Assembly (NCBI GenBank): GCA_038064835.1
Contig: JBBTSD010000001.1
Location: 100,406 to 164,405 of the forward strand
Direction: 5' to 3'
Source: Patescibacteria group bacterium
GTDB taxonomy: Bacteria; Patescibacteriota; Minisyncoccia; Phycocordibacterales; UBA2100
Length of the DNA stretch: 64,000 nt
In this document: in pieces, positions 10,771 to 51,000 of the stretch
How positions within the stretch are numbered: the first letter of the stretch is position 1
Layout of the letters: each line of letters opens with the position of its first letter
Notes under the pieces: model-generated
Databases searched by the model: none
Told to the model about the DNA's origin: nothing
Seen by the model: only the letters and a program-made list of their open reading frames with translations
Program-made: the position numbers and the translations under genes

Positions 10771-10772
10771 AT

Positions 10773-12083
10773 ATGGGATTTCCTGTGATGCGATATGTGA
10801 GCGAGTGTGTTGCCTTCATGCGATTTCATATCCTACATCGTCGTTCACGCAAGGTGATTGAGAAATGGCAGACAGACAGGCTACGACGGTTACTCGTTCA
10901 TGCAGAAAAAAATGTACCACTATATAAAGAATTGATGGCGACACAAAACATCCGGGCTACGGACATCAGCACGCTTGAAAACCTCTCCTTTTTGCCAGTT
11001 ATCAACAAGAAAACATTTATTGGAAGGCAGGTTGTTGAATACACTGATGGCAGTCGACACCTTTCTGGTCAATGGGTAACAACATCAGGATCGAGCGGTG
11101 TTCCTTTTACAGCACTTCGACGAACCGAAGTACAAACACTGTGGTATGGGTACTCCCTCAACTCTCGGTTCCTGACATGGGAAATGCCGTGGCGTCTGAA
11201 TGCTGACTGGGCACGAGTGGCGCATATTCGTGTGCGCCCACGGGAACGAAAGAATCATTTATGGATTCCACTAGGCGCATTTTTGAACAATCCAAGGTCT
11301 TTATTACAGCAGATTGTCGATTTCAAACCCGATGTGGTTGAAAGTTTCGCATCAGTACTATATGTGTTAGCTCGCGAGGTTGATCGTTATGGAATTGTCT
11401 GGAAGCCGCGCTATGTGGTTTCAGGCGGAGAGCAATTGTCGCCGGCAGGGCGTCTTTTTATTGAAAACACACTGGGGTGCGAAGTGTACAACCGTTATGG
11501 TCTTGAAGAATTAGGCACAGTGGGCGTTGAATGCATGCAACATGACGGACTCCACATAAACTCCGAGTCGTTGATTGTTGAGATTGTTGACGAGAGTGGC
11601 GCAAGTGTGCCCGAAACAAATCACGGAAGAGTTATCATAACCGACTTGTTCAATACCAGCATGCCTTTTGTGCGCTACGACACAGGTGATCGAGGGCATA
11701 TGTCCTGGGCGCGTTGCGCGTGCGGATTGCGTGCACCCCGGTTGTGGATTGAAGGTCGTTACTCGACTTTTCTACAATTAGGAGATCAAACTTTTCATCA
11801 TTTCTATTTCTCATACACCCTGAAGCCATTCAAGAATCAAATTCTTCAATACCAAGTAGTAAAGCGTGCTGAAAATGACCTGCTTATCCGCATTATCCCG
11901 GGGTCTGCTTTTGGGGACGAAACAACAGTGGCTATTCAAAAAGAAATTGCCAATCTGGTTAAAGAGACAGCTTCGGTTCGTGTCGAGTGTGTTGCAGAAA
12001 TAAAACGAATGCCCCGGGGGAAATCTCAGGTTATCGTTGACGAAACGGCTGGCACTCAAAAACCAGATATTCTCAAACAATAA
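10773..12083 (+). CDS. Adenylate-forming enzyme, PaaK/CapK-like (paralog 2)
   Basis: TTSGSSGVPF and YDTGDRG motifs. It starts 3 nt after paralog 1. Confidence 0.6.
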   Translation: MGFPVMRYVSECVAFMRFHILHRRSRKVIEKWQTDRLRRLLVHAEKNVPLYKELMATQNIRATDISTLENLSFLPVINKKTFIGRQVVEYTDGSRHLSGQWVTTSGSSGVPFTALRRTEVQTLWYGYSLNSRFLTWEMPWRLNADWARVAHIRVRPRERKNHLWIPLGAFLNNPRSLLQQIVDFKPDVVESFASVLYVLAREVDRYGIVWKPRYVVSGGEQLSPAGRLFIENTLGCEVYNRYGLEELGTVGVECMQHDGLHINSESLIVEIVDESGASVPETNHGRVIITDLFNTSMPFVRYDTGDRGHMSWARCACGLRAPRLWIEGRYSTFLQLGDQTFHHFYFSYTLKPFKNQILQYQVVKRAENDLLIRIIPGSAFGDETTVAIQKEIANLVKETASVRVECVAEIKRMPRGKSQVIVDETAGTQKPDILKQ

Positions 12084-26065: not shown

Positions 26066-27352
26066 ATGCGTATAACAGTGTTTGGGAGCGATGCGCGGGC
26101 GCACGCTCTGTGCACACGACTGACGATGGATACTGTAAAGCCCGTCGTTACCTGCGTGCCGGGAAATGCGGGAATGAAAGAACCGATTCGGCGCAAGCAC
26201 ATACTTCCTGCGTGTATGGACAATCTTGCACGGTCTGTAGAAGGAAGTTGTGATCTGGCCATAGTTGGGTCTGATAGACTTCTAGCACAAGGACTTTCTG
26301 ACAAACTCCGAGAGCGAGGGATTCCGACTTTTGGTCCGTCGAAATGTGCTTCAGAAATTGAATGGAGCAAATTGTTCGCAAAGAGCCTGATGGATCGCTA
26401 TCGTATTCCCACAGCCAAATGGGGTGCAACCAGTGATGAAGGAATGGCTCGCGCAATGGTAAAGGAACTCGGTGGACCTCCTATTGTACTCAAGGCTGAC
26501 GGTCTTGCCGACGGTAAAGGAGTTTTTGTCGCCGATACGGACATCGAGGTCGATGAGGCGATCACCGCTCTTTTCACTGAGAGACGATTTGGCGGTTCAA
26601 AAACTGTCATTATTGAAGAAAAACTCAGTGGATGCGAAGTCTCATACACCGCTCTGTGTGATGGTAGGCGCATCATGCCACTTCCTTGCGCTATGGACTA
26701 TAAGCAGGCGCTCGCCGGTGATAAAGGCCCAAATACGGGTGGTATGGGGGCACATAGTCCTTCGTTTGTACTCACTCCGGCACAGTGTGCGTGGATTGAT
26801 GTGCATATTATGCAAAAGGTGGTTGACGCACTTGCTTCGCAGGGGCTTGAATATCGCGGCGCGCTCTATGCGGGATTGATGGTTCTTCCTGGGGGAGATA
26901 TCCGGGTCATCGAATTCAACGCTCGCTTTGGCGATCCTGAGTGCCAAGTGCTGATGCCACGAATTGGCGAGGACTTGGCACCGCTTTTGTTGGCGGCCGC
27001 GACGGGGAATCTTTCTCCTCGTCCGGTTCGGGTTATGCCAGGCGCCGCTGTATGCGTTACGCTCGCAAGCGCTCCATACCCCGAGAAAGCGACTCCTAAA
27101 GGATTTGTCATCGATGGAATTCTCGCGGCAGAAAAAATTCCTGGGGTGCACCTATATCATGCACACACCACTCGGCAAGGGGATGCTTCTTACATCGAAG
27201 CAGGTGGGCGAGTACTGAGCGTGTGCGCCAATGCCGATTCTTTCAAAATGGCCCTAGAAAAGGCTTATGTGGCGGCCAGGACCATCACTTGGCGAGACAA
27301 GACAATGCGTCAGGACATAGGCTGGCGGGTACTTGACAAATATACCAGATAG
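26066..27352 (+). CDS. purD: Phosphoribosylamine-glycine ligase (GAR synthetase), divergent
   Basis: ATP-grasp PurD-like (MRITVFGSDARAHAL ...). Unusual location between secY and adk. Confidence 0.7.
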   Translation: MRITVFGSDARAHALCTRLTMDTVKPVVTCVPGNAGMKEPIRRKHILPACMDNLARSVEGSCDLAIVGSDRLLAQGLSDKLRERGIPTFGPSKCASEIEWSKLFAKSLMDRYRIPTAKWGATSDEGMARAMVKELGGPPIVLKADGLADGKGVFVADTDIEVDEAITALFTERRFGGSKTVIIEEKLSGCEVSYTALCDGRRIMPLPCAMDYKQALAGDKGPNTGGMGAHSPSFVLTPAQCAWIDVHIMQKVVDALASQGLEYRGALYAGLMVLPGGDIRVIEFNARFGDPECQVLMPRIGEDLAPLLLAAATGNLSPRPVRVMPGAAVCVTLASAPYPEKATPKGFVIDGILAAEKIPGVHLYHAHTTRQGDASYIEAGGRVLSVCANADSFKMALEKAYVAARTITWRDKTMRQDIGWRVLDKYTR

Positions 27353-27516
27353 GTATACAATAATAAGACGCTAGGTAGGCCCCGCAAGGCTCGGCCGAGC
27401 CTAGGTCGGCAATGGCAACCCCGTTAGTGTTGCCTCAATGATAGGATTTTTTCGGAGGACCCGGCACATGCACTGGCCGTAGGTACTCAACAACACGAGA
27501 TTGATTATGACGGGAC

Positions 27517-27547
27517 CCGCTAACCATGCGGGTCCCACTTTTTTGCC
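27517..27547 (+). terminator. Intrinsic terminator
   Basis: gggacccgctaaccatgcgggtccc followed by ttttttt. Confidence 0.55.
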
Positions 27548-27698
27548 CCAACATGGGGCCTGCTCAGATGGATGCAGTTCTAGGCGCGCAAGAAACAGAC
27601 GACGAGGCGTACTGAGGTAGTACGACAAGGAGTATGTTTTGAAGCGCAACGAAGAAATGCGCCATGTGTGCAGGCCCCGCATCTGGTATTATGCCTGC

Positions 27699-28286
27699 AT
27701 GAAGCATGAGCCAAAAAGAGTGGTGGTCATTGCTGGTCCGTCAGGGTCCGGCGAAAGCACTTTCACGGAAGAGCTTATGCTTGCATACCCGAATTTTACT
27801 CGCACAGTTTCCGCAACCACACGGGCTCCCCGCGGAAACGAGAAGGATGGCGTGGACTATTATTTTATGACCAAGGAGAAGTTTTTTGAAGAAGTGCAAA
27901 ATGGCAACATCCCCGAGCATGTGCTCGTGCGGGCACGCGACGCCTACTACGGTACTTATTTGCCCGACCTCACCAGGCGATTGGCATCAGGAAAAACAGT
28001 TGTTGCCAACACCGATTTGTCTGGAGCGGAGTATTACAAAAAAAACTACAATGCGGTGACCGTTTTCATAAAACCAAAATCAATTTTTTCTCTGTACAAT
28101 CGTTTGGTGCATCGCGACCCCACTATGCCCAAGGAAGAAGTGCTTACCCGCGTCATGAGCGCTGTCCAAGAAATACTTGAGGCTGAAAGCAACTATGATC
28201 ATGTGGTATTTACAGGGGACAATGAATTTGCAGAAACCCTCATTCACATTGTCGATAAACTGAAGCATGAAGGGTATGTCGTTTAG
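27699..28286 (+). CDS. gmk: Guanylate kinase
   Basis: P-loop VIAGPSGSGESTF with a guanylate-kinase-like fold (YYF, TTR). Confidence 0.7.
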   Translation: MKHEPKRVVVIAGPSGSGESTFTEELMLAYPNFTRTVSATTRAPRGNEKDGVDYYFMTKEKFFEEVQNGNIPEHVLVRARDAYYGTYLPDLTRRLASGKTVVANTDLSGAEYYKKNYNAVTVFIKPKSIFSLYNRLVHRDPTMPKEEVLTRVMSAVQEILEAESNYDHVVFTGDNEFAETLIHIVDKLKHEGYVV

Positions 28287-28881
28287 TCACCATGTCATCC
28301 GTCCTGGGGTGGTTATCGTTGCAGGTCCTACGGGGGTGGGTAAGGACAGTATTGTCCGAGAAATTATCGCACAATGCGAGGGGTGTGTAGAACTAATCAC
28401 TGCCACGACCAGAAAGCGTCGCGAAAATGAAGGGCAGGGCGAATATCATTTTTTTACAAACGAGGTATTTGACAAGGCACTCGCCTCTGGTGAAATACCC
28501 GAACACTGGACACATCCAAGCGGTGCCCGTTACGGCACCTACTTGCCCTATCTCACGGAACAACTTGGAAAAGGGAAGGTGATTATAGGGGATATGAATA
28601 TTGTGGGGGCACGGTACATGAAGGAGAATCACCGCGCGCTGACACTATTTATTCTCCCTCCGGACTTCTCGGTGCTACGAGAACGAATAATCAAACGAGG
28701 GCGTCATGATCTTTCGGAAAAAGAGATAGATGCGCGACTTCGGCTTGCGCAGCAAGAGATTGCCGAGCACTCGCCTTGGTACGATTATCGTGTAATAAAC
28801 AGAGAAAACCAGCTCGATACTGCAGTGCAAGAAGTCCTTGAGATTCTGACAAAAGAAGGCTATTGTGTCAGTGATGTCTGA
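28267..28881 (+). CDS. Guanylate-kinase-like paralog with divergent P-loop
   Basis: VIVAGPTGVGKDSIVREI...TTRKRRENEGQGEYHFF. It overlaps the gmk stop and is a tandem duplicate. Confidence 0.55.
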   Translation: MKGMSFSHHVIRPGVVIVAGPTGVGKDSIVREIIAQCEGCVELITATTRKRRENEGQGEYHFFTNEVFDKALASGEIPEHWTHPSGARYGTYLPYLTEQLGKGKVIIGDMNIVGARYMKENHRALTLFILPPDFSVLRERIIKRGRHDLSEKEIDARLRLAQQEIAEHSPWYDYRVINRENQLDTAVQEVLEILTKEGYCVSDV

Positions 28882-29497
28882 AAATAATACTGCGAAAATT
28901 GAACGGCCCATCTCGGTCGTCTTTTTTGGTGTCTCGGGTTCTGGCAAAGGGACTCAAGCCATCCTTCTTGAGGATTACCTTGTGCGAAATACAGGCGAGA
29001 AGGTCTTGCGCCTTGAAATGGGAGAGCGACTACGGGGTTTTGCTGCGGGAAACAGCGATGCAAGCAGACGAGTCAAGGGCGTCATGGAATCGGGAAAATT
29101 GCTACCCGCATTTGTCCCGTCACATATGATGACCACTTTTTTTCTTGGAGAGTTTACCGGGTTTGAACACTTGATATTCGATGGCGTTGCACGGCGCATC
29201 GAGCAATCATCAGTCTTGGATGACGCTCTGGTTTTCTACGATCGGACCGACTACCAGGTGATCTCTCTCGAACTTTCGTTCAATGATGCACATGAGCGGT
29301 TACGACTGCGCGGGCGGTCCGACGAGGCGGACGAGGTGAAAATAAAAAGTCGTTTCGCATGGTACGAAAGCGAAGTACTTCCTGCACTCCATGAGCTCGA
29401 GAAGCGGGGGAGGAAAGTGCATCGTATTGACGCACGACCCGCAATCGAAGTCATTCACAAAAATGTGCTTACTGCATTAGGGTGTGAGATTACATGA
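28865..29497 (+). CDS. adk: Adenylate kinase
   Basis: FFGVSGSGKGTQA P-loop with an Adk-like LID region. Confidence 0.85.
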   Translation: MSVMSENNTAKIERPISVVFFGVSGSGKGTQAILLEDYLVRNTGEKVLRLEMGERLRGFAAGNSDASRRVKGVMESGKLLPAFVPSHMMTTFFLGEFTGFEHLIFDGVARRIEQSSVLDDALVFYDRTDYQVISLELSFNDAHERLRLRGRSDEADEVKIKSRFAWYESEVLPALHELEKRGRKVHRIDARPAIEVIHKNVLTALGCEIT

Positions 29498-30261
29498 TTA
29501 TCCGCGCCGATTTTGAACGAGAGGCGTTGCGCAAAGGAGGTGCGCGTTTGGCGACACTTCTGCAAAAGTTGGCAACAATGGTTGCGCCGGAGGTTTCGGT
29601 CATGAGCCTTGAGGCAGAAGCACAGAAACTGATTAAAGAAACGGGCGACACTCCAGCATTTTTAGGGTACCAACCGCACGGCGCAAAGCGGCCCTACCCT
29701 GCCGCGCTTTGCGTCTCGATAAACGACGCTATTGTCCACGGTATTCCAGAAGAAGGGACTGTCATTCAGGATGGTGATGTGGTGACTCTTGACTGTGGCT
29801 TAGTGCATGAAGATTTCATAACCGATTCTGCCGTTACGGTGTATGCAGGCACTGTATCTGAAGAAAAGAAACTGCTCATTCGGGCGACCGAAGAGGCGCT
29901 GGCCGCTGGTATCAATGCCGCACGCACTGGTAATCACATGGGTGACATAGGGTATGCAATCGAACGGGTGGGGAAAAAATATAGTCTCGGCTCACCGCGC
30001 GAACTTGGCGGGCACAGCGTGGGAAACGCAGTCCACGAGGAACCATTTGTACCCAACTTTGGTACTCCGGGGAAAGGCCCCATTCTTGAAGAGGGTATGG
30101 TAATTGCAATCGAGCCAATGTTTATGCTTGGTTCCAGTGGCATACGGCTTGATGCCGATGGCTATACCTATCGAACCCGCGACGGCTCCTGTTCCGCACA
30201 TTCCGAACACACGGTGATTGTTGGTGCACAGGGTGCGGAAGTGCTCACTAAGCGACCGTAA
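29494..30261 (+). CDS. map: Methionine aminopeptidase (type I)
   Basis: Pita-bread fold motifs. Conserved position after adk. Confidence 0.9.
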   Translation: MIIRADFEREALRKGGARLATLLQKLATMVAPEVSVMSLEAEAQKLIKETGDTPAFLGYQPHGAKRPYPAALCVSINDAIVHGIPEEGTVIQDGDVVTLDCGLVHEDFITDSAVTVYAGTVSEEKKLLIRATEEALAAGINAARTGNHMGDIGYAIERVGKKYSLGSPRELGGHSVGNAVHEEPFVPNFGTPGKGPILEEGMVIAIEPMFMLGSSGIRLDADGYTYRTRDGSCSAHSEHTVIVGAQGAEVLTKRP

Positions 30262-30282: not shown

Positions 30283-33117
30283 ATGGAGCCGCGTTTTACA
30301 CCTCCCGTTGAAACTTCACCGTATGTGGCGCAACCACAGAAATTTCGTACCCCCGAAGAAGAGATTGCATATCTGCGTTCACGCATTGCCGAGAAAGAAA
30401 AAGAACTTGGTGCAAAGCCCACCCCGTTTGAACATGAGCGAATTGCAAAACGCGAGATTGTACAGTACGGAGAGGAAACCCCAAGCCAGGTATTGCACGA
30501 AACAGTCATTGTTGCCGAGCATGACGCGATGCGACAAGCGCTTCAACTAGAACCTGAAGAGCATGATACTCAGGTAGACGAACTGCTCCAGTTTGTTTCC
30601 GAGCGAGGCGTACGAAATGCTCTATCTGTTGCAGCGAAATTAAACAATGCGCACATCATGGACGACTTGCATCGTGCACTGGTGCGTTACATTGCCGAAG
30701 GTCTTCCTGTGGGTGGAAGTGTGCTCACTAATCCACTCGAATCAGGACAGACATGGCGCGCATTGCATATGACACTGTATGAAGTACAGCCACAAGGAGC
30801 ATTCAAAGAGGAAGATCAACAAAAAGGACTTGAGCAGATGCTTAAGTCGATGGAGCAGTTATATGCAGGGTTGCTAGCTATTTCTAGCGGAAATACTGAG
30901 AGCAAACACAATGTCTTTTCGCTCGAAATTGCTGTGGCCCAAGGGTCAGAGGACGCGGTATTCTACATAGCCGTTCCTAGTAAGAAGAAGGATCTTTTCG
31001 AGCGCCATGTGCTTTCCATTTTCCCGAACGCTCGCCTTATCGAACGGCGTGGAGATTACAATCTCTTTGATCATGACGGCTATCACAGCGCCGCGTATGC
31101 CACACTGGCCGAGCACCCCGCGCTCCCGGTACGGACTTACGAGGAATTTCAACATGACCCGATGAATGTGCTCTTGTCTGCCTTTTCAAAACTCAAAAAA
31201 CACGGCGAAGGTGCAGCACTGCAGATTGTGGTGGGGAACGAAGGTGACCGCTACAACAAATACTACAAAAAGATTCTTGGCGAACTGCACAAAGGAAAAA
31301 AGTTTAAAAAAGCAATTAAAGTAGCGGAGTCCAAAATAGGACAATTGCTGGACGATGCGGCAAAGGGGCTATTTCAGAGCGGAGAGAAGAAACCCGAAGA
31401 AAATCATGGTGAACAAGAAATGACCGAGCGCGTTGGGAAGAAATTAAAATCACGGATCGTACCCGTCAATATACGCATCGTGGCTTCGGCGCAAAATGAA
31501 GGCAGGGCACGGGACATATTGGCAAATTTGGCCTCGACTTTCAATCAATTCGAAGATCCCCAAGGCAATCACATTCTTTTTAAAGAAGCGTCTCGATGGA
31601 CTTTGCAGGGTGTTTTGCATAACTTTGTGATGCGTATTCCCGAGCACTCCCGAGCACTCCCGCTGAATTTTTCGGAGCTGACCACTCTGTACCACCTGAC
31701 CGCTGAAGGGGTGCGCACTAGTCGCGAACTCAAGCAGTCGCGAGCAAAGCAGTCGCCCGCACCTACTGATATGCCGGAAGAAGGAATTGTGCTCGGCTTC
31801 AACGACTTTGGCGGCGAGAAAAAAGACATCTACTTCAGCAAAGAAGATCGCCTGCGCCATCTGTATGTCATCGGGCAAACAGGTACCGGTAAGACCAACA
31901 TCCTTAAGAACATGATCATCCAAGATATTAAGAATGGCGAAGGTGTGTGCTTTATTGATCCACACGGCTCTGATATCCAGGATATTATTGCGTCGGTCCC
32001 ACCCGAGCGCGAGAAAGACCTCATCTACTTTGACCCAGGGCATTACGAGCGACCCATGGGACTCAACATGCTTGAGTACGATCCAAAATATCCGGAGCAA
32101 AAAACTTTCCTTGTAGACGAGATGCTCGGAATTTTCCGGAAGCTATACAAGGATGTCCCCGAATCTGTCGGCCCCGCATTCGAACAGTACTTCCGCAACT
32201 CCGCACTCTTAGTGATGGAAGATCCATCCACAGGAAATACGATGGTGGATATTACGCGTGTTTTCGCAAACGAACAATTCAGAAATCTTAAAATATCGCG
32301 ATGCCCCAATCCGCTCGTGGTGCAATTCTGGCGTGACATCGCCACGAAAACGCAAGGTGAACAATCCCTTGAAAACTTCGCGCAGTATGTAACCAATAAA
32401 TTTGACATCTTTCTAGCGAACGAAATTATGCGACCGATTGTTGGACAGGAGAAGTCAGCCTTTGACTTCCGAGACATTATGGACAACCGCAAGATATTGC
32501 TCATCAATCTCGCGAAGGGTCGTCTCGGCGAGATGAACTCATCACTCCTCGGGCTCATCTTTGTGGGCAAGTTTCTTAACGCAGCACTCTCGCGTGTAGA
32601 TTTGGTCGGTCGGGCAGATATGCACCCGTTTTATATGTATATTGACGAGTTCCAAAACTTCACCACGCCATCAATCGCTACAATCCTTTCCGAGGCGCGC
32701 AAATACCGACTGGTGCTCAATGTGGCACACCAATTCATTGATCAGCTGACCGAAGACATTCGCGACTCTATTTTCGGCAATGTGGGCACAAAATGTGTGT
32801 TTCGTGTAGGCGAGAAAGATTCCGAGTTTTTGGAAAAGATGTTCCAGCCAGAGTTTAAGGCAACCGACATCATGCACCTTAACAACTTCAACGGATATAT
32901 GTCGCTTTTGGTGAAGGGGAAGCCGGTGAAGCCATTTAACATAGAAACCTACCCGCCTCCAAAAACTGATTTTGGCCGTGTGGACACATTGAAACATATG
33001 TCGTACGAGAAATTCGGTCGGCCGCGCGAAGAGGTCGAAGCCGAAATCAAGGCGCGATATACGACGAAGCCATTACCGATCGGCAATCTGGGGGCTGAAT
33101 CCTACGGTTCATTTTAG
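30283..33117 (+). CDS. Large (944 aa) P-loop NTPase of the TraD/VirD4/HerA-like (AAA_10/DUF87-type) class with a roughly 500-aa N-terminal helical domain
   Basis: Walker A VIGQTGTGKTN, Walker B FYMYIDEFQNF, and CFIDPHGSD. These are typical of FtsK/HerA/TraD coupling-type ATPases. The N-terminal half has no recognisable motif. Confidence 0.5.
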   Translation: MEPRFTPPVETSPYVAQPQKFRTPEEEIAYLRSRIAEKEKELGAKPTPFEHERIAKREIVQYGEETPSQVLHETVIVAEHDAMRQALQLEPEEHDTQVDELLQFVSERGVRNALSVAAKLNNAHIMDDLHRALVRYIAEGLPVGGSVLTNPLESGQTWRALHMTLYEVQPQGAFKEEDQQKGLEQMLKSMEQLYAGLLAISSGNTESKHNVFSLEIAVAQGSEDAVFYIAVPSKKKDLFERHVLSIFPNARLIERRGDYNLFDHDGYHSAAYATLAEHPALPVRTYEEFQHDPMNVLLSAFSKLKKHGEGAALQIVVGNEGDRYNKYYKKILGELHKGKKFKKAIKVAESKIGQLLDDAAKGLFQSGEKKPEENHGEQEMTERVGKKLKSRIVPVNIRIVASAQNEGRARDILANLASTFNQFEDPQGNHILFKEASRWTLQGVLHNFVMRIPEHSRALPLNFSELTTLYHLTAEGVRTSRELKQSRAKQSPAPTDMPEEGIVLGFNDFGGEKKDIYFSKEDRLRHLYVIGQTGTGKTNILKNMIIQDIKNGEGVCFIDPHGSDIQDIIASVPPEREKDLIYFDPGHYERPMGLNMLEYDPKYPEQKTFLVDEMLGIFRKLYKDVPESVGPAFEQYFRNSALLVMEDPSTGNTMVDITRVFANEQFRNLKISRCPNPLVVQFWRDIATKTQGEQSLENFAQYVTNKFDIFLANEIMRPIVGQEKSAFDFRDIMDNRKILLINLAKGRLGEMNSSLLGLIFVGKFLNAALSRVDLVGRADMHPFYMYIDEFQNFTTPSIATILSEARKYRLVLNVAHQFIDQLTEDIRDSIFGNVGTKCVFRVGEKDSEFLEKMFQPEFKATDIMHLNNFNGYMSLLVKGKPVKPFNIETYPPPKTDFGRVDTLKHMSYEKFGRPREEVEAEIKARYTTKPLPIGNLGAESYGSF

Positions 33118-33155
33118 GTTGCTCAGAGTCCTGTTTTTGTGTACAGTGCTCCTCT

Positions 33156-33746
33156 ATGGCACACCCAATAAAAGAGGAAAAGACTTTTGTATTAGTAAAG
33201 CCCGATGGCGTGCGGAAAGGACTTATCGGTGAGATTATCCGTCGTTTCGAACAACGCGACCTCAAAATTGTCGCCCTTGAAATGTTTCAGCCGACAAAAC
33301 AAATGATCGATGATCACTATCCAAAGGATCAGGCTTGGATTACTCGCGTAGGTGAGAAGACTCTCGCGACCTACGAAAAGTACCACATGGACCCTATCAA
33401 GGAACTGGGTTCGAAAGATCCGCTCAAGCTCGGGAAGATGGTGCGCGGTTGGCTCGTTGACTACATGATTTCTGCGCCGTTAGTGCGCATGGTAGTGCAG
33501 GGCGTGCATGCGGTAGACATGGTACGCAAAATCGCAGGCCCTACGATGCCGTACATCGCTGATATGGGCACTATTCGCGGCGATTTCTCGATGGACTCTC
33601 CGGCAGTGGCAAATGCCGAGAAGCGTCCAGTGATGAATATTCTCCATGCATCAGAGACCGCAGACGAAGCGGCTCACGAGATTAAGCATTGGTTTGGCAA
33701 GAAGCCTCCTGTGTATAACTACAAACGACACGGAGTGGATGAATAG
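33156..33746 (+). CDS. ndk: Nucleoside diphosphate kinase (long form)
   Basis: FVLVKPDGVRKGLIGEIIRRFE. Confidence 0.8.
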   Translation: MAHPIKEEKTFVLVKPDGVRKGLIGEIIRRFEQRDLKIVALEMFQPTKQMIDDHYPKDQAWITRVGEKTLATYEKYHMDPIKELGSKDPLKLGKMVRGWLVDYMISAPLVRMVVQGVHAVDMVRKIAGPTMPYIADMGTIRGDFSMDSPAVANAEKRPVMNILHASETADEAAHEIKHWFGKKPPVYNYKRHGVDE

Positions 33747-33776
33747 GTTCTGTTATACTGGTGCTCCAGTAATCCA

Positions 33777-34643
33777 ATGATTCTCGAGAAAAGACCACGC
33801 GATTCCGATGACCCCTCCCAAGGACACAAGGGTTCTCCTCTGACAAATGGACACGAGCATACTTCGGGCATCACCGTCGAGGTCATCACCGATTCTGAAA
33901 CAATAATCAATGAGGAGGTGTTGCGTGTGCGTTGGTATCTCGATGACTGGAAAAGGTATAAGGCGTTAGGCTACGATAGCGTTATTCGCTTGCCTGGCGG
34001 CATTGATCCGGAGCGAGATGAAGGTGTGATTAGTGATGAGGACATCAGGAATGCTGTTGCCGCTGATTTTGCAACAAACCATACCTTCTACGAGACATTT
34101 TCTCGGCGCTTTGAACAGGCCTGGCACACTATTACAGATGTGGTGTTGCCGGTGGCACATACGGTGTATGGTTTTTCCCCTTCAGGTCATTTCAAGGTTA
34201 TGGGCACAGCATATGGGACAGGTGGAGGAGCATTACAGACGGGAGGTGTTGTTTTCTTCAAGCTTCCTGAGTATCGTCTCACCCCCGTGCGGCGTACAGA
34301 TATAGAGGGTGTTGTGCACGAGGTTCTTAACCATGAAGCTACGGCGGGGTTGCGGAAAGATACAGGTATGGAGGATTCTATACACGCGAAGCACCACTGG
34401 CACAAAGAGCGGCTCATGGATCTTTTAGGCAGAACACTTTTGGTGCGCGCCGGTATTATGATGCGCAGTGATGTAGTCATGGATGACTACGCTGAAGAGC
34501 AAGCTGGCGACTTGGTCGATAGGCTTTATTACGCTCACCCAGATACTCCTTCAGAGGACGATTTGTTATACGAGGGGCGTCTCGGAGAGCTCGTTCAAGC
34601 TATAGATGATGGTTTGCGTCTCACGGTCGCTCCTCCCGCATAA
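33777..34643 (+). CDS. Hypothetical protein
   Basis: 288-aa ORF with an acidic N-terminus and no recognisable motif. Confidence 0.35.
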   Translation: MILEKRPRDSDDPSQGHKGSPLTNGHEHTSGITVEVITDSETIINEEVLRVRWYLDDWKRYKALGYDSVIRLPGGIDPERDEGVISDEDIRNAVAADFATNHTFYETFSRRFEQAWHTITDVVLPVAHTVYGFSPSGHFKVMGTAYGTGGGALQTGGVVFFKLPEYRLTPVRRTDIEGVVHEVLNHEATAGLRKDTGMEDSIHAKHHWHKERLMDLLGRTLLVRAGIMMRSDVVMDDYAEEQAGDLVDRLYYAHPDTPSEDDLLYEGRLGELVQAIDDGLRLTVAPPA

Positions 34644-34685
34644 CAGACCCCTGTTGACTAGTCCTCAAGGGAATATTCCAACAAG

Positions 34686-34709
34686 TTGTGCACAGGTGCG
34701 GACGGGCAG
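34686..34709 (+). repeat. 25-nt direct repeat, copy 1 (gttgtgcacaggtgcggacgggcag), upstream of mntA
   Basis: Identical except for 1 nt to 35771-35795. Both copies are followed by (ag)aaagtgc. Confidence 0.5.
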
Positions 34710-34766
34710 GGGGTGCGAGCAGAAAGTGCAATAGACTCAGCTCTTGTTTCGAGCTACGATACTCGA

Positions 34767-35180
34767 ATGAACGAAATGGATACTAAAACAATGGTGGATG
34801 CAGTGCGTCCGATTGCGGAGCGAGCGGGCCTTTCACTGGTCGTGCTTTTTGGCTCGTACGCAACAGGACGGGAGCATGCGCAGAGCGATACCGACATCGC
34901 TGTACTTGCTGAGAGGACTTTTTCACCCAGTGAGCTCGCGACGCTCGCGTACGAACTTTCACAGAATCTCAAGAATTCCTCCATAGACATCTCCGATCTA
35001 CGCACGGGGTCGCCACTTCTGCTGCGTACCGTCGCGCATGATGGAATCGTTTTGTTTGAAAGAGAGCCTCATGCGTTTGCCCTCTTTCAGATGTACGCAT
35101 TCAAGCGTTTTGTGGAAGCGAAACCTCTGAGAGATTTGCGTAGGGCATCGCTCGAACAATTTGTTGCACCAACACTATGA
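34767..35180 (+). CDS. mntA: Minimal nucleotidyltransferase (MNT) antitoxin
   Basis: LFGSYATGREHAQSDTDIAV (GS...DxD Pol-beta-type NTase motif). Start at ATG 34767, because the listed TTG extension would cover the upstream repeat. Confidence 0.65.
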   Translation: MNEMDTKTMVDAVRPIAERAGLSLVVLFGSYATGREHAQSDTDIAVLAERTFSPSELATLAYELSQNLKNSSIDISDLRTGSPLLLRTVAHDGIVLFEREPHAFALFQMYAFKRFVEAKPLRDLRRASLEQFVAPTL

Positions 35181-35599
35181 TGGACATCGCCATTCTCGAA
35201 AGCAAGCTTGCCGACCTTCAGGCGTTTTACAAAGAAATCGTCGTCATAGTATCGGAAGACTCTCTCGACATTATTGCCGACTCACTCAAGCTCCACAGTG
35301 TCGAGAGACTTTTCCAGCTCATTGTCGATACGGCTATTGATATAAACACACATATCATAAGCACCTCAAATGGGGCGGTACCTGATGACTACCAAAGTAC
35401 ATTTATGGTACTTGCCGAAAGAAACATTCTTCCAAAAGAGTTTGCACTACGAATCGCACCATCAGTCGGATTACGAAATCTCGTGGTGCATCGTTACGGA
35501 AAAGTGGACATAAAACGCATGATCGAAGACATCAAAAAGGAGATTGGGCAGTACCAGGAGTATGCAAGGTACATCGTTTCTCATCTTCACCGAGAGTAG
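35177..35599 (+). CDS. hepT: HepT / DUF86 HEPN-domain toxin
   Basis: RNLVVHRYGKVD (Rx4HxY HEPN motif). 4-nt overlap with mntA. Confidence 0.65.
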   Translation: MMDIAILESKLADLQAFYKEIVVIVSEDSLDIIADSLKLHSVERLFQLIVDTAIDINTHIISTSNGAVPDDYQSTFMVLAERNILPKEFALRIAPSVGLRNLVVHRYGKVDIKRMIEDIKKEIGQYQEYARYIVSHLHRE

Positions 35600-36069: not shown

Positions 36070-36543
36070 ATGACGAAGCGATTGTTTTTCGCCGGTACGA
36101 GTATACTTGTGCTTACGCTCGCGGTGCATCTCTATGCCCAGACAGGCAAGCTTTACTGGCAGGTATGGTGGCTCGATATACCCATGCATTATTTCGGAGG
36201 CATCGGGGCGGGATTCTTTGGGCTCTGGTTCGCGTCTCTCTTGGGTGTTCTTCCGCGCACGGGCGATGCCTCTAGTACGCTCTGGGGTGTTGAGATTCGA
36301 TTTCCACAAGGTGTGCCACGGTGGTGGTCTTTACTGTGGACACTGATTGCGGTTGCAATCATCGGCATCGGGTGGGAGATGCTCGAAGTATTTCTCCTGG
36401 CCTATTTCGATAAACCTATCCCTTTTGGCTACATTGAAGACACACTGAAAGATCTTGTTATGGATACTCTTGGTGCAACTACTGCCTGGGCGGCTTTTCA
36501 TCGTGTACAATGGCAGGCATGGTTGTTGCGGGAGGCACACTAA
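36070..36543 (+). CDS. Small integral membrane protein
   Basis: 157 aa with 4 predicted TM helices. Confidence 0.4.
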   Translation: MTKRLFFAGTSILVLTLAVHLYAQTGKLYWQVWWLDIPMHYFGGIGAGFFGLWFASLLGVLPRTGDASSTLWGVEIRFPQGVPRWWSLLWTLIAVAIIGIGWEMLEVFLLAYFDKPIPFGYIEDTLKDLVMDTLGATTAWAAFHRVQWQAWLLREAH

Positions 36544-37910
36544 CGCAGACGACACTCACTTTTTGCGGAGGCACCGGTTCAGTAACTGGTGCTAATTTTT
36601 TACTCGATACCGGAGTAGAGAAAATTCTGGTCGATTGCGGTCTCATCCAGGGTGCGAGTTTTTGTGATGAACGCAATTGGGTGCCCTTTGTCTACGATCC
36701 GCACGAAATCGGCACGCTGTTTGTAACCCATGCTCACACCGATCATATTGGACGAATTCCGCGTCTCGTGCGCCTGGGCTTTTCAGGTGTCATCTACTCC
36801 ACGCTCGCCACGAAAGATATTGCCGAACTCATGTTTGAAGATGCGCTCAAAGTGATGCGAGAAGAAGAAGTTCGTCACGGTAATATGCATGGACTGCTCT
36901 ATGAAATGAGTGATGTAAAAAAAGCACTTTCGTTGTGGCGTACCGTACCGTATCACGATTCCATAAAGCTCGAGGGAGGTATGCATGCACGGCTTTTAGA
37001 CGCAGGGCATATCCTCGGGTCGGCCATGGTTGAATTCTCGCGCGGTGGGAAGAAGTTGCTCATGACAGGAGATTTGGGTAACGAAAATGCACCATTGGCA
37101 CGCCCGACAGAACCTATTACAAATATCGACTATATGGTTATGGAGAGTGTCTACGGCGACAGAAACCATGAGAATACTACGCAACGGAAAGACATTCTTA
37201 AAGACGCAATCCAGGAAACTACTCGCCAAAGTGGGGTCCTTTTGATACCAGCGTTTTCAATTGAACGCACGCAGATCATTCTCGCTGAGATTAGTCACTT
37301 GTTGCGAGAAAAAAGCATCGCTCCCATTTCTGTATACCTCGACTCACCACTCGCAATACGGTTGATGAGGGTGTACCGTGCTCATGCGCGTGATTTGAAT
37401 GACGCAATTCGTGCACGGTTTGAGCACGGCGACGACCCATTCTCGTTCCCAGAGCTTTCAATTACCTCACGAGTCTCTGAGTCAAATACTATCTATTCGA
37501 GTGCAAATCCAAAGGTTATTGTCGCTGGTTCAGGCATGTCTCATGGTGGGCGAATCCGACAGCATGAAAAGCACTATCTCGGTGACAAGAAAACCACTAT
37601 TCTTTTTCCGGGGTACCAGGCTGTGGGGTCCTTGGGGAGGCGACTGGCCGAAGGGGCACGAAGTGTGCGCATTGATGGGGAATGGGTGCGCGTCCGTGCG
37701 CGAATTCGCCAGTTGCAGGGCTACTCGGCACATGCAGATATGGATCAACTGATTGCCTTTGTTGAGCAGGTGGCACCATCAATTCGAAAGGTCTTTGTTG
37801 CCATGGGTGAACCAAAGTCGTCCTTGTTCCTGACACAACGACTGCGCGACTTTTTAGGCGTTGATGCCTCGGCGCCAGGTGTTGGGGAATCTCACACACT
37901 CGACATCTAG
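36510..37910 (+). CDS. MBL-fold metallo-hydrolase with beta-CASP domain (RNA-metabolising, CPSF/RNase J-like)
   Basis: HAHTDHIG (HxHxDH) plus a beta-CASP-like C-terminal half (SAHAD). Confidence 0.6.
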   Translation: MAGMVVAGGTLTQTTLTFCGGTGSVTGANFLLDTGVEKILVDCGLIQGASFCDERNWVPFVYDPHEIGTLFVTHAHTDHIGRIPRLVRLGFSGVIYSTLATKDIAELMFEDALKVMREEEVRHGNMHGLLYEMSDVKKALSLWRTVPYHDSIKLEGGMHARLLDAGHILGSAMVEFSRGGKKLLMTGDLGNENAPLARPTEPITNIDYMVMESVYGDRNHENTTQRKDILKDAIQETTRQSGVLLIPAFSIERTQIILAEISHLLREKSIAPISVYLDSPLAIRLMRVYRAHARDLNDAIRARFEHGDDPFSFPELSITSRVSESNTIYSSANPKVIVAGSGMSHGGRIRQHEKHYLGDKKTTILFPGYQAVGSLGRRLAEGARSVRIDGEWVRVRARIRQLQGYSAHADMDQLIAFVEQVAPSIRKVFVAMGEPKSSLFLTQRLRDFLGVDASAPGVGESHTLDI

Positions 37911-37929
37911 CAAGTGCTACACTAGAGCT

Positions 37930-38649
37930 ATGGATTTTAATGCTGTACAGGCTGAAAATGATAAAAAGTACGAACTCGATTTAACTCGTGTTCCGCATGC
38001 CCACGGCGATCTCTCATCTGGCGCTTTGGGCAAATTTAAGAGCGACAGCAAGGTGCGTATTTGTGTATCCGGTGCGGCAGAGACAGGGCACTGCGGGCTT
38101 GATTCGTATGAGCTTGCGAAAGAGCTGGGAAGGGAAATTGTTCGACAAGGTGCTATTTTGGTGACGGGGGCTACAACAGGTATACCGCTTTATGCGGCTG
38201 TGGGCGCAAAGGAAGAGGGGGGATTTTCAATCGGCTTTTCTCCAGCCGCAAGCGAGCGCGAGCATGTCGAGATTTATCGTCTCCCAACTGACTACATGGA
38301 CATTATTATATATACCGGTTTCGGCTTCCCCGGACGCGATTTGTTGCTCACTCGTTCTGCAGACGCGGTAATTTTAGGGTGTGGACGCGTGGGAACTATT
38401 CACGAATTTGTCGTTGCGTACGAAGACAAAAAACCAATAGGTATTCTCGAGGGTTCTTGGCACACTGATGAAGTGCTCAAACATATCATGCGCGAGAGCA
38501 ATCGTCCCATGGACAATGTAGTTTCAAATAAAGACCCCAAAGAGCTGGTCGCACAAATGATTACTATGGCAAAGAGAACCAAGCTGGAGCTGAATAGTAT
38601 TTATCGTAATTATGACGGATGGGCAGGGAATGATCGGCGTGTTGTGTAG
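37930..38649 (+). CDS. Rossmann-fold LOG/SLOG-like (TIGR00725-like) nucleotide-binding protein
   Basis: VSGAAETGHCG...ILVTGATTGIPLYAAVGA...ADAVILGCGRVGTIHE. Start at ATG 37930. Confidence 0.4.
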   Translation: MDFNAVQAENDKKYELDLTRVPHAHGDLSSGALGKFKSDSKVRICVSGAAETGHCGLDSYELAKELGREIVRQGAILVTGATTGIPLYAAVGAKEEGGFSIGFSPAASEREHVEIYRLPTDYMDIIIYTGFGFPGRDLLLTRSADAVILGCGRVGTIHEFVVAYEDKKPIGILEGSWHTDEVLKHIMRESNRPMDNVVSNKDPKELVAQMITMAKRTKLELNSIYRNYDGWAGNDRRVV

Positions 38650-38857: not shown

Positions 38858-39514
38858 ATGAGCACAGAATTTGCGATTGCCGATGTTTCGCCCGGCAAGC
38901 TGAACGCACTGGTGAAGAACCTCATGCGTCAGACTGGAGAATCCGATCCAAACGAGGCCGTTCGTCTTCTCAACTCGGGTGAATGGGTTGTTTCAAAACC
39001 GACCCATTCATGGCACGAGAAAGACGGCGTCATCTACTTCAATGTCACCTCGGACGGCACGACCGGCGAGGACTGGATCACCCGGCTCGAGAGCAAGGGC
39101 TTCAGCGTGGACAGCTGCGCCAAGCAGGTGCTCCGCTCAGCGGATTTCAAGCCGACCAACGGCGTGACGACCGAAGTCGCCGTCCTCAAAGGCTGTCTCT
39201 TCGAGGAACGGGGCCGGACTACTTCGGTGATCCGCGCCGAGGCCGACAAGAGGAAGCTCTCGAAGCCGAACACCGAGATCACCTGCCTCATCCGTGAGAA
39301 GTTCACCGACAAGAAGATCGAAGCGATGGGTCTGTGGTACATCGTTGCCATGCACGAACCCATCAACGACTCCGGCGGCGATCCGGTCTTGCTGTACGCG
39401 AACCGTAGCGTCGATGGTCGCCGGCTCAAGGCGTGCCACGAGCGGCCTCTCAACGGGTGGCATCGTGACAGCGGGTTCGCGTTCGCCGTGTCGCACGGCA
39501 GTGCTCAACCCTAA
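38858..39514 (+). CDS. Hypothetical protein encoded by a GC-rich gene
   Basis: 218 aa with an AAGGAGA RBS. Body roughly 60% GC versus roughly 50% for neighbours. Confidence 0.4.
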   Translation: MSTEFAIADVSPGKLNALVKNLMRQTGESDPNEAVRLLNSGEWVVSKPTHSWHEKDGVIYFNVTSDGTTGEDWITRLESKGFSVDSCAKQVLRSADFKPTNGVTTEVAVLKGCLFEERGRTTSVIRAEADKRKLSKPNTEITCLIREKFTDKKIEAMGLWYIVAMHEPINDSGGDPVLLYANRSVDGRRLKACHERPLNGWHRDSGFAFAVSHGSAQP

Positions 39515-48037: not shown

Positions 48038-51000
48038 GTGCCTAAGATTTTAAAATTACTTTGCTTATTACTGCTAGTAATCACCACACTCGGGCCCGTG
48101 GGTGTTTTGTATGCTGCTCCAGGTGTGCCAACCATCTTGAGTTTCCAAGGGAGACTTACTGATTCATCAGGTAATCTTTTGGGGGGCTCTGGGACAGGCT
48201 ATTATTTCAAGTTTTCAATATGGGATTCACCGACGGTTGGTTCAGGAAATCGTCTCTGGCCGACAAGTGCGCCAGGAAGTGTTACAACGACAGTCCGGCA
48301 AGGAGTGTTTACTGTTAATGTTGGCGACACGGCAAATGGATTCCCCGACGCACTTACTTATGCGTTTGATTCTGAAACTATCTACCTACAAGTCGAGGTA
48401 TCATCAAACGGATCATCGTACGAAACCCTTTCCCCTCGTCAGCAAATTGCCGCATCAGCATTTGCGCGCGTCGCGGGAGCGGTAAGTGGGACGGGGCAAT
48501 CAGCAATTGGAACAACAACGCCACTAGCGAATACGGTCCTCACTGTTGAGGCGACATCATCTATCGCGACACCGCTCAGTATTCGCGGGGCTCCGAACCA
48601 GTCTGGCAGTCTTTTAACTATTTTGAGTTCTGTAGGATCGTCGCTTTTCTCGATCGGTAGTTCAGGTAGTCTGACAGCGCTCGCGGGCGCACTCTTCGGG
48701 AATGCTTCATCGACTCTTTTTTCAACACTTGACGGTTTGTATGTTGGACGGACGGCAACAACTACTATCCTTGGTTCGGCAACTTCTACTTTCGGCGCAG
48801 GTGTCTCCACTACCCGCCTCGAAACCACTTCCGCCTCGTCAACTATCAACGGCCTTCGTGTCACTGGGAACGGCTTGCAGATCGCCAGTCTCGTAAACTG
48901 TGCTGAAGCACTGGAAACAGATGCAAGCGGCAACATCGTCTGTGGCACTGATGCCACTGCCGCAGGTGCTGCGGATCCGTTCACTTTCGCAACGAACTAC
49001 GGCATAACCAACGCCGCCACTTCGTCACCGCTGTGGGCATTAGCAGGCATCAATGCATCCTCAACATCACATTTCGCCACTTTTGACGCTGTTGCAGGAA
49101 CCACTACCAACTTCGCCATCTCAAACATCGCCAGCTCTCTTCTTAAAACAAATGCAACAGGAGGAATCGTCCCTGCTATCGCTGGTACTGATTACCTCAC
49201 CAGCTCAAGCATATTCAGCTACCTCTTCCCATCAAATGCCACCAGTACTGCACTCTCATTCACCGGAGGCATCACTACCACCAACGCCTCCACCACCAAC
49301 CTCTCCGGCAACACTCTCGCCATCGGCGGCACCGCCACCACCACCATTGCAAACACCGGAGCCATCACTACACCAACCTTGACGATAGGTACGCTTACGG
49401 GTTTTCTGAAAGCAACAGCAGGAGTTGTTGCGGCTGCAGCCGTCAATGTGGCGGCAGATATTACTGGCATTCTCCCCACCGCAAACGGCGGCACCGGCTG
49501 GGGTAATGTACAAGCAAACACAGTTCTTCTTGGTAATGGTACTGGTGCGCTTGCCACCACTACAGCGGGTGCGAACGGGCAGGTCCTCGCCCTCGTCGGT
49601 GGTGTCCCAACATGGACTGCAACAACTACCTTATCCACTATCTCAGGAACCCTTGGTGTCGGTACTGGCGGTACCGGACAGACTACTTTTGCATATGGTC
49701 TGCTATCTTCACCTGGCGGTACCGACGCTCTTACTACTATCAGCACCTCGTCGCTTGGTCTGCTTACTACTGATATTACCGAAGGATCGAATCTCTACTA
49801 CACAACCACTCGTTTTGATAATCGCTTGTCAGCAACTACCTCACTTCCAAATATCACTACACTTACAAATCTTTCGATATCTGCGACACAACTCAGTAAT
49901 TTCGGTACCCCGTTCTACCAATTCTTTTCTGCAACTACGACAGACGCCCTTACACAAGGGAGTACCAACAAGTACTACAGCGACCCGCTCGTCCAAGCCT
50001 TTGTGCACGCGTCTTCTACTATTCCGAAAACATATACCGCAAACACTTTTACGGGGGCAAATACTTTCTCTTCGGCGTTAACTCTCAGTGGTCTGAACGG
50101 CCCTCTTGATGCAAGGAACGGTGTCGTTGGTGCTACCACTTCAGTTGGCGTTCTTTATGGAGGTACCGGACTCACCTCTGCGCCGTCAAACGGAAGCATC
50201 CTGCTAGGGAACTCTTCGGGTGGCTACTCAATTTCAGCCACCTCCTCGCTCGGTATCGCACTTGCTGACACCACCGGCACACTTGCGGTTGCACGAGGTG
50301 GCACAGGAGCAACCACACTCTCCGACCTCATCACCCTTGGCACACACACCTCTGGCAACTACCTCGCCACGCTCACCAATGCCGGCGGTCTCACCATCGC
50401 GAACTCAGGAGCAGAGACTGCAGCAGTCACCGCAGCACTCGATCTCACCAATGCAAACACCTGGACAGGGAAGCAGAACTTCTACGGCACTGCCTCATCA
50501 ACACTGTTCTCGGCGAACCGCGCTTATTTCGGAGGGACAGCGACAACATCAATCTCTGATGCGGGTGTACTCACTTTGGCCGGCCTTACCTCGACCCTAC
50601 TTAAAGCAGACAACAGTAATAATCTTGTCGCCGCTGTGGCAGGTGTTGATTATTCAAACTTCGCATATCTGTTTCCCGGCAACGCCACGACGACGGCACT
50701 CACTTTTTCGAACGGGATTTTATCATCTGCCTCCACCACAATCGGAGCAGGAACACAGGCGACAGGGCTCACCGTATCGGGAGGAGCAACGACGACGGGA
50801 AACTTGATTGTGCAGGGAACAGGAACATCGACATTTTCAGGTGGTCTGCAGGCAACGAATGTATACGCAACTGCCACATCAACGATGGCTGGAATCATAT
50901 CGCAGTCGATTGTTCCTAATGGGGATGCAACCTACGATTTAGGGTCTGCTACGAATCGTTTTAGAGACCTCTACCTATCTACCGCATCACTTCACCTTGA

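Follow-up and report, generated by a model that had tools for sequence, protein, structure and literature searches.

What is a 944-residue ATPase doing directly downstream of map (29494-30261) in a Patescibacteria ribosomal-protein neighbourhood, and is its expression switched by a short repeat inside its own gene? The 64-kb stretch of DNA analysed here, referred to as the window, is part of a Patescibacteria chromosome of the Kaiserbacteria-like type. As an earlier note on this DNA had pointed out, infA and the genes from rpsM to rplQ do not follow map. The three ORFs found there instead (the ATPase, ndk and a 288-aa protein) are all real, with the coordinates it had described, and ndk is indeed a long form: its Pfam match is split in two, and the median length in the ndk cluster from related loci is 198 aa. 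The ATPase gene is intact and belongs to a very large family of the Patescibacteria that combines a DUF8128 domain with a VirD4/TraD-like ATPase, and we are highly confident of this identity and architecture. The best overall explanation, which we consider reasonably probable, is a soluble DUF8128 ATPase that stems from a coupling motor of monoderm conjugation and may work with a type IV secretion system (T4SS). The features of the locus are listed in Table 1.

Table 1. Features of the ATPase locus in window coordinates; aa ranges count along the ATPase.
Feature	Position	Strand	Basis or remark
Syntenic genes upstream: gmk, gmk, adk, map	27639..30261	+	Pfam/NCBIfam
944-aa DUF8128/T4CP-like ATPase gene, whole ORF	30283..33117	+	ORF
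Helical extension at the N terminus, aa 21-141, without transmembrane segment	30343..30705	+	Helices 24-138, AF2 model
DUF8128 domain, aa 156-470, fold of the VirB4 N-terminal domain	30748..31692	+	
Perfect 10-nt tandem, TCCCGAGCAC x2, then TCCCG	31638..31657	+	Apparently coincidental
FtsK/HerA-superfamily nucleotide-binding domain (NBD), aa 501-890	31783..32952	+	
Walker A GQTGTGKT, aa 531-538	31873..31896	+	Invariant in 50 homologues
All-alpha insertion, aa 601-735, between Walker A and B	32083..32487	+	Helices 605-720, model
Walker B YMYIDEF, aa 784-790	32632..32652	+	Invariant in 50 homologues
ndk, 196 aa, lineage-typical long form	33156..33746	+	PF00334 1e-34, two stretches
288-aa orphan protein	33777..34643	+	No Pfam or NCBIfam match
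MntA/HepT type VII toxin-antitoxin pair	34686..35599	+	NF047752 2.8e-24, NF047751 3.4e-26
Syntenic genes downstream: DUF2238, beta-CASP RNase, SLOG	36070..38649	+	

The Walker boxes that had been seen in the C-terminal half are genuine, and across the 50 homologues compared the invariant positions comprise G531, Q532, T533, G534, G536 and K537 at Walker A as well as D788, E789, F790, Q791 and N792 around Walker B. The N-terminal half, by contrast, can no longer be called unassigned, as it was in the earlier note: public precomputed matches place PF26449 (DUF8128) on it, both in the identical protein P0001, which NCBI names 'TraM recognition domain-containing protein [Patescibacteria group bacterium]', and in the gene called in four other contigs that carry the window protein (L081-L084). 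Our local Pfam search did not report this model on the ATPase, and the Pfam match to DUF87 covers just 39 residues at the P-loop. The all-alpha insertion sits in the position of the all-alpha domain of type IV coupling proteins (T4CPs); 33% of its columns are invariant over both clades of the family, the same share as in the NBD core. A hydropathy scan over the full length of the protein found no transmembrane segment (maximum Kyte-Doolittle value over 19 residues, 1.41), whereas the members of a sister clade, 39-42% identical to the ATPase, are anchored by one N-terminal transmembrane helix.

The origin of the helical N-terminal module can be traced through this sister clade. Just upstream of the membrane-anchored homologues lies a gene for a stand-alone protein of ~140 aa, to which aa 21-141 of the ATPase are homologous (hhalign 97.3%, E 1.7e-11), and a tblastn search with one of these small proteins matched the window at 30568-30723. 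This homology to a stand-alone neighbour indicates a gene fusion. Of the gene context termed B, neither the large membrane protein nor the small acidic one has a homologue in the window.

More than 1,144 homologues of the ATPase were found, the full-length ones at 57-79% identity; over 100 of the listed proteins show this identity over 95-100% of the length. A further search for the DUF8128 family, with clustering at 90%, brought the number of homologues to more than 5,594, and the N-terminal half alone accounted for 906 clusters at 50% identity, forming the protein N terminus in the full-length matches. Matches occurred in at least 597 species genomes, for which all listed records are Patescibacteria or unclassified metagenome-assembled genomes. 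A literature search for PF26449 or DUF8128 by name returned no publication.

Among proteins of known structure, the best sequence matches of the ATPase in the PDB were TrwB and DotL. Compared with the R388 proteins (NC_028464) by hhalign profiles, the NBD with its Walker A and B motifs is closer to the coupling protein than to VirB4 (TrwB 93.9% vs TrwK 6.4%). Yet this is no canonical member of the VirD4/TraD/TrwB/DotL group. It reaches only 34-45 bits against curated T4CP models with cut-offs of 366-800 bits, and falls short likewise when four models are taken singly (TIGR03743, 44.8 vs 366; TIGR03754, 33.8 vs 648; TIGR02759, 15.4 vs 521; NF045973, 32.5 vs 250). It also lacks the typical N-terminal transmembrane domain, and carries a VirB4-like domain of ~315 aa and a helical module of ~140 aa ahead of the NBD. 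An all-alpha domain is inserted in the NBD of both, but in plasmid T4CPs it is the variable, substrate-specific part, whereas in the family of the window protein it is highly conserved. Neither a relaxase nor a T4SS is linked to the gene, since no T4SS component, relaxase or pilin was found within the 64-kb window or in up to 8 kb of sequence flanking 80 related loci on either side.

The closest characterisable relative is a Bacillus subtilis plasmid protein, WP_121549396, annotated as a 'DUF87 domain-containing protein' (hhalign 99.9%, E 7.6e-35, 652 columns, query 187-895). Its gene belongs to a Tcp-like conjugation module on plasmid NZ_CP032854 that also encodes TcpE and TcpF/VirB4, and it directly precedes a relaxase-type gene of the replication-relaxation family. 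This is the usual position of a T4CP, and the protein is distinct from the plasmid's own VirB4 (TcpF). The two ATPases are homologous across the DUF8128 domain and the NBD, and both are soluble, without an N-terminal transmembrane segment. They differ in that the Bacillus protein is plasmid-borne, shares only ~22% identity with the window protein, and carries a long acidic tail at its C terminus but no helical N-module.

We infer that the window ATPase most likely forms a ring and acts as an ATP-driven motor for coupling or translocation, whether in the service of a T4SS encoded elsewhere or exapted; of the two roles offered earlier, translocation or defence, the latter is unsupported. The family would descend from a VirD4/TraD-like coupling-type motor of monoderm conjugation systems. 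Its three modules (the helical N-module, an alpha/beta domain resembling the N-terminal domain of VirB4, and an FtsK/HerA-type NBD with the all-alpha insertion) may assemble, by analogy with the structural relatives, into a ring-shaped oligomer. The VirB4-like domain and the helical module, standing in for a transmembrane helix, would hold this ring at the membrane, where it could use ATP to pass on or pump a macromolecule, be it DNA or protein. In T4SS structures of R388, the N-terminal domain of VirB4 reportedly docks on membrane components. The working partner would most probably be a Patescibacteria T4SS encoded elsewhere, although to the T4SS-coupled mechanism as such we give slightly less than even weight. 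Against it count the missing transmembrane segment, the lack of linked T4SS, relaxase or pilin genes in the window and the 80 related loci, and scores far short of the cut-off for all curated T4CP and VirB4 models.

Gene order bears on the question whether the ATPase serves a T4SS at all. The order secY-(gmk)-adk-map-ATPase-ndk-DUF2238-betaCASP-SLOG is shared by the closest relatives and ~35-40% of the evaluable loci of the clade, and its upstream part, gmk-adk-map-ATPase, recurs in loci L088 and L089. Both gmk genes, adk, map and the ATPase gene probably form one transcription unit: a promoter-like site (27333-27361) and a terminator-like hairpin (27512-27536) both precede gmk, and from map to ndk there is just one terminator-like match, which is weak and coincides with the 3' end of the ATPase gene (33092-33110). 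For a wider view, the best 80 related loci, from 80 different genomes, were compared. Clustering of their 1,112 ORFs revealed no neighbour common to all contexts. The neighbours are housekeeping genes, namely uvrB, tgt, pyrH, rplT/infC and genes for an FKBP-type isomerase, a penicillin-binding protein, PMT-type glycosyltransferases and GtrA-like proteins. We considered ndk as a functional partner, but found synteny alone (at most three genes downstream of the ATPase in 17 of the 49 soluble-clade loci that could be evaluated) and keep it as a neighbour. The 288-aa protein was ruled out as a partner: its 42 homologues occur in three unrelated contexts, after an MgsA/RarA-like AAA ATPase, a pilM cluster or gltX, and it is missing from the 80 related loci as well as from L088 and L089. 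As the MntA/HepT pair is absent from the same position in L088 and L089, too, the 288-aa gene and this pair are regarded as the same local insertion.

This context would suit a T4SS-independent housekeeping translocase. Early in the history of the Patescibacteria, a conjugative coupling ATPase would have been exapted for some core function, for instance to handle DNA when cells divide, to take up DNA or protein from the host, or to export an envelope component. The probable co-transcription with nucleotide kinases in the ribosomal-protein/secY/adk/map neighbourhood and the alternative positions beside tgt/uvrB/FKBP or PMT-type glycosyltransferase/GtrA genes speak for it, as does the conservation of the all-alpha insert, with 33% of its columns invariant in the two clades, a hint at a single conserved partner. 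That T4CP homologues are encoded far from virB4 is already known from a 2025 survey (PMC12102498), which counted 5,713 VirD4-type homologues, spread over 2,918 of the 3,035 Patescibacteria genomes (96%), more than the 2,417 genomes with VirB4 (80%); only 148 of the homologues lay near virB4, and its authors raised exaptation themselves. The same survey found the t4cp homologue of S. epibionticum to be dispensable while the T4SS was essential, which weighs against a core task and against coupling to the T4SS alike, and the housekeeping gene order may be mere inherited synteny. We rate early exaptation as unlikely. A phylum-wide version is similarly doubtful in our judgement: DUF8128 ATPases would be a motor without any remaining role in conjugation or a T4SS, domesticated at the root of the Patescibacteria for a core function in epibiotic life. 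In that version, the ancestor would be a coupling protein of monoderm conjugation equipped with a VirB4-like docking domain, its descendants might, for example, move DNA, nucleotides or proteins into or out of the cell where it meets the host, and the Kaiserbacteria/Nomurabacteria-type clade would have become soluble by fusion with a small partner protein.

Alternatively, the protein could be a second, divergent VirB4-type ATPase, acting as an assembly or pilus-biogenesis motor instead of a coupling protein. The VirB4-type N-terminal domain fits this, but the profile similarity to TrwK is limited to the P-loop, the score against TIGR00929 is 22.6 bits vs a cut-off of 643 bits, and the gene does not stand beside genes for VirB3, VirB6 or VirB8. 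We consider this alternative quite improbable.

The earlier note had also envisaged a defence ATPase with an on/off switch in its reading frame. PADLOC matched the ATPase to mad8 (7.6e-16) and weakly to HerA and DndH, and the MntA/HepT pair lies 1.5 kb downstream of the gene. These matches, however, reflect generic ATPase-domain homology: the partner genes NurA, Sir2, Dnd or MADS of HerA, DptH (DndH) and mad8 are lacking, the context is one of housekeeping genes, and the N-terminal domain is alpha/beta and VirB4-like, with no HAS-barrel-type domain as in HerA. No PADLOC match was obtained for the ORFs at 33777-34643, 36070-36543, 38858-39514 and 48038-52885, and an anti-phage defence system was rejected because its other components are missing beside the ATPase. 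A phage or mobile origin was likewise rejected, as a pattern scan of IMG/VR viral contigs gave just eight matches, all confined to the C-terminal half.

The perfect 10-nt tandem does exist inside the gene, although not at 31636-31655, where it had been placed, but 3 nt away, as cccgagcact x2 at 31639-31658; this reading is equivalent to the one at 31638-31657 in Table 1. Such tandems are rare by chance (0.06 perfect period-10 tandems expected per mononucleotide-shuffled window vs two observed). Its eight codons, P-E-H-S-R-A-L-P, align without gaps to PE[A/S/V]SRA[L/I]P in the homologues, and the corresponding codons read CCCGAGGCTTCCCGCGCGCTCCCG in a relative of 76% identity and CCGGAGGTATCGCGCGCGCTCCCA in one of 73% identity, where the repeat is imperfect. 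From the sequences, the tandem thus appears to be a codon coincidence within a conserved PE-x-SRALP motif and not a duplication event. With only two units, no indel in relatives and an identical sequence in the four other contigs (L081-L084), a switch is unsupported. For a chromosomal gene that is syntenic and found throughout the phylum, next to a toxin-antitoxin pair that relatives lack, we regard a phase-varied defence or mobile-element ATPase as exceedingly improbable.

The window locus itself is hence ordinary for its lineage and holds no switch; its significance lies in the family. Patescibacteria account for a large part of bacterial diversity and rely on hosts, yet for most of their conserved genes no function has been tested. 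The DUF8128 family is apparently among their most widespread large proteins, and if the T4CP homologues of the 2025 survey (PMC12102498) are this family, it would be present in ~96% of genomes, above the VirB4 marker. Three handles now exist: the DUF8128 domain as a VirB4-type docking domain, a Rosetta-stone link to the partner protein of ~140 aa, and a relative, homologous over its full length, that occupies the slot of the coupling protein in a conjugation module of Bacillus. With these, the role of this orphan coupling ATPase of the CPR becomes testable in cultivable Saccharibacteria systems.

Three plus-strand ORFs directly follow map, largely as the earlier note had described: the ATPase gene, ndk and the gene of a 288-aa protein (table below). 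Upstream lie the genes for S8, L6, L18, S5 and L15, secY, purD, two guanylate kinases, adk and map; the 3′ side carries MntA/HepT (a type VII toxin-antitoxin pair), a DUF2238 membrane protein, a beta-CASP RNase and a SLOG protein. The genes rplT, rpmI and infC are on the opposite strand. An identical 944-aa protein is recorded as [quoted passage not shown], and the same sequence is encoded on GCA_964361175.1 (330,809-bp contig) and three Logan assemblies (separate sequencing runs). This identifies the window as Patescibacteria (CPR) chromosome; the closest named relatives are Candidatus Kaiserbacteria. A promoter-like site precedes gmk, as does a strong terminator-like hairpin. From map to ndk a single terminator-like match occurs, weak and located at the 3′ end of the ATPase gene; on these grounds this gene is probably cotranscribed with gmk-gmk-adk-map and ndk. 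No T4SS, relaxase or defence partner genes were found within the 64 kb, and the defence role suggested earlier does not hold.

The purD gene sits between secY and the two tandem guanylate kinase paralogues; the gmk pair recurs in the closest relatives, L088 and L089, and purD was not called in the fetched flanks of either. In ndk, ~45 aa are inserted between the halves of the NDK fold; the active-site motif reads H-A-S-E, where canonical NDKs have H-G-S-D. Such a long-form ndk is typical of the related loci (median 198 aa).

Features of the window and regions of the 944-aa protein
Feature	Position	Strand	Source
YcaO region	2179-3645	-	
YcaO region	3729-4187	+	
YcaO region	9310-12083	+	
Four 12-nt tandem duplications	3996-4160		
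purD and guanylate kinase paralogues	26066-28881	+	
map, directly 5′ of ATPase ORF	29494-30261	+	
ATPase ORF, 944 aa	30283-33117	+	ORF call
Match to ~140-aa protein	30568-30723		tblastn
10-nt tandem, TCCCGAGCAC x2	31638-31657		
10-nt tandem, equivalent reading cccgagcact x2	31639-31658		
ndk, 196 aa	33156-33746	+	ORF call
288-aa protein	33777-34643	+	ORF call
288-aa gene plus MntA/HepT	33777-35599	+	
1,615-aa ORF	48038-52885	+	
tRNA-Ile	59453-59525	+	
N-terminal helices	aa 24-138		AlphaFold2 model
Alpha/beta domain (a flexible linker follows)	aa 156-470		AlphaFold2 model
P-loop domain	aa 500-890		AlphaFold2 model
Walker A	aa 531-538		
All-helical insertion between Walker A and B	aa 605-720		AlphaFold2 model
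Walker B	aa 784-790		

The conserved ATPase gene is intact, and its catalytic motifs are invariant. Public precomputed annotation assigns PF26449 (DUF8128) to the N-terminal half, and an AlphaFold2 model built on 50 homologues (mean pLDDT 79.8) resolved the regions listed in the table. The all-alpha insert has 33% invariant columns, as many as the NBD core, which suggests that a single partner or substrate may be conserved throughout the phylum.

The family falls into two clades in a neighbour-joining tree of 79 full-length sequences: proteins of ~800 aa with one N-terminal transmembrane helix (TM clade) and proteins of ~910-960 aa with no hydrophobic segment, among them the window protein (maximum 19-residue hydropathy 1.41). 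The N-terminal extension of this soluble clade (residues 21-141) is homologous to a stand-alone ~140-aa protein encoded immediately 5′ of the TM-type genes (hhalign 97.3%, E 1.7e-11, 116 columns); both carry the motif G(I/V)xxAL...HxxD(D/A)FHxxLV, a tblastn search with one ~140-aa protein matched inside the ATPase gene, and the small protein has no Pfam match. It is separate where the ATPase is membrane-anchored and fused where the anchor is lost, a Rosetta-stone pattern which argues that ATPase and small protein would act together. In context C (12 loci of the TM clade), the small gene lies before the ATPase, often together with PMT-type glycosyltransferases, and a GtrA-like protein follows the ATPase.

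Soluble-clade genes occur in two settings. Context A reads secY-adk-map-(0-3 genes)-ATPase-ndk-DUF2238-betaCASP-SLOG. Of the evaluable loci, 17 of 44 have map at most five genes before the ATPase, and 17 of 49 have ndk at most three genes after it. In context B (11/49 evaluable loci, including L010, L015, L027, L030, L040, L041, L054, L055 and L080), the gene directly after the ATPase is an ORF of 580 aa or more; several of these loci continue with an acidic protein of ~100 aa, an FKBP-type isomerase, tgt and uvrB. The four large ORFs examined (L010, L027, L055, L080) encode variable membrane proteins of ~800-1,200 aa. Two of them have the motif PGHGYEYM.KR..EQLHSQ in common, and one acidic protein matched DUF5663 weakly. 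The large and acidic proteins may represent a partner or substrate specific to the lineage; none has a homologue in the window.

Searching plasmids by tblastn, we found a "DUF87 domain-containing protein" on Bacillus plasmids spanning query residues 208-892. For the protein from NZ_CP032854 (24.7 kb), the hhalign alignment takes in the DUF8128 domain as well as the NBD (99.9%, E 7.6e-35, 652 columns); like the window protein it is soluble, and it has an acidic tail. The next gene downstream belongs to the replication-relaxation family; a coupling protein usually occupies this position, and the same module includes TcpE and TcpF. In Tcp-type systems TcpF is the VirB4 (E 1.5e-253), and the DUF8128 family has no similarity to it beyond the P-loop. 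A relative in the coupling-protein slot, separate from TcpF, makes a putative ATPase of the coupling type, with a docking domain like that of VirB4, a better reading of the window protein than a second VirB4. The ATPase class proposed earlier holds in part. The Bacillus relative also agrees with the published derivation of the Patescibacteria T4SS from monoderm conjugation machinery.

The family is large. The full-length window protein has more than 1,144 homologues in a 90%-clustered database, the best 120 of which are all ~910-960 aa long and 55-79% identical, and the more distant member L066 retrieved more than 5,594. The N-terminal 500 aa alone gave 906 clusters at 50% identity, matching at the N terminus of full-length homologues, with many of the remaining matches being fragments. 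A pattern scan in which each species was represented by a single genome yielded at least 597 confirmed matches, and every record among the 80 matches listed was from Patescibacteria or an unclassified MAG. Quinonero-Coronel et al. 2025 (PMC12102498) reported 5,713 VirD4-type T4CP homologues, spread over 2,918 of 3,035 Patescibacteria genomes and with just 148 located near virB4, and VirB4 in 2,417 genomes; these T4CP counts, which may be of DUF8128 proteins, fit our family numbers. The ATPase is an ordinary syntenic member of an already catalogued, functionally uncharacterised family. Exaptation, which the same authors state "cannot be ruled out", stays alive, because T4CP homologues are spread wider than VirB4 and the S. 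epibionticum homologue is reported as non-essential (PMC12102498).

The earlier note had also joined the ATPase, ndk and the 288-aa gene into one locus, which does not hold. The closest relatives, L088 (76% identity) and L089 (73%), read gmk-gmk-adk-map-ATPase-ndk-(DUF2238)-betaCASP-SLOG and have neither the 288-aa gene nor MntA/HepT. These three genes are therefore an insertion of ~2.3 kb that is specific to this genome and separates ndk from DUF2238. The 288-aa protein has 42 homologues without any Pfam domain, and the three looked up sit in three unrelated contexts; it was rejected as an ATPase partner on these grounds.

The perfect 10-nt tandem in the ATPase gene exists, 3 nt from where it had been placed. 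Such period-10 tandems number 2 in the window vs 0.06 expected from shuffled sequence; there are also four of period 9 and four of period 12. Its eight codons (PEHSRALP) align without gaps to PE(A/S/V)SRA(L/I)P in 23 homologues, the relatives at 76% and 73% protein identity have CCCGAGGCTTCCCGCGCGCTCCCG and CCGGAGGTATCGCGCGCGCTCCCA at the equivalent codons, and the 30-nt stretch is unchanged in all four other contigs fetched for the 944-aa protein, which rules out a duplication event. Point substitutions inside a conserved motif produced the perfect periodicity. With just two units and no length variation among the sequences compared, the suggested slipped-strand on/off switch finds no support.

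Elsewhere in the window, a YcaO cyclodehydratase gene adjoins an ORF with four perfect 12-nt tandem duplications, and two weak AMP-binding-like ORFs (below the Pfam cut-off) lie further on; the region may be a RiPP-type biosynthetic cluster. The tRNA-Ile has the anticodon TAT (UAU), which would be unusual, as AUA is decoded by a modified CAU tRNA in most bacteria. The N terminus of the 1,615-aa ORF is 57% identical to an ORF of the related locus L077 (9455-11266), and the ORF has no Pfam or PADLOC match.

We infer that the ATPase would be a ring-shaped, ATP-driven motor working at the membrane, where the helical module and the VirB4-like domain may dock it; it could feed a T4SS encoded elsewhere, or exaptation could have given it a different translocation task. 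The family is of moderate interest, and the picture of it is sharpened by the resemblance of DUF8128 to the VirB4 fold, by the fusion with the partner and by the relative in a conjugation module.
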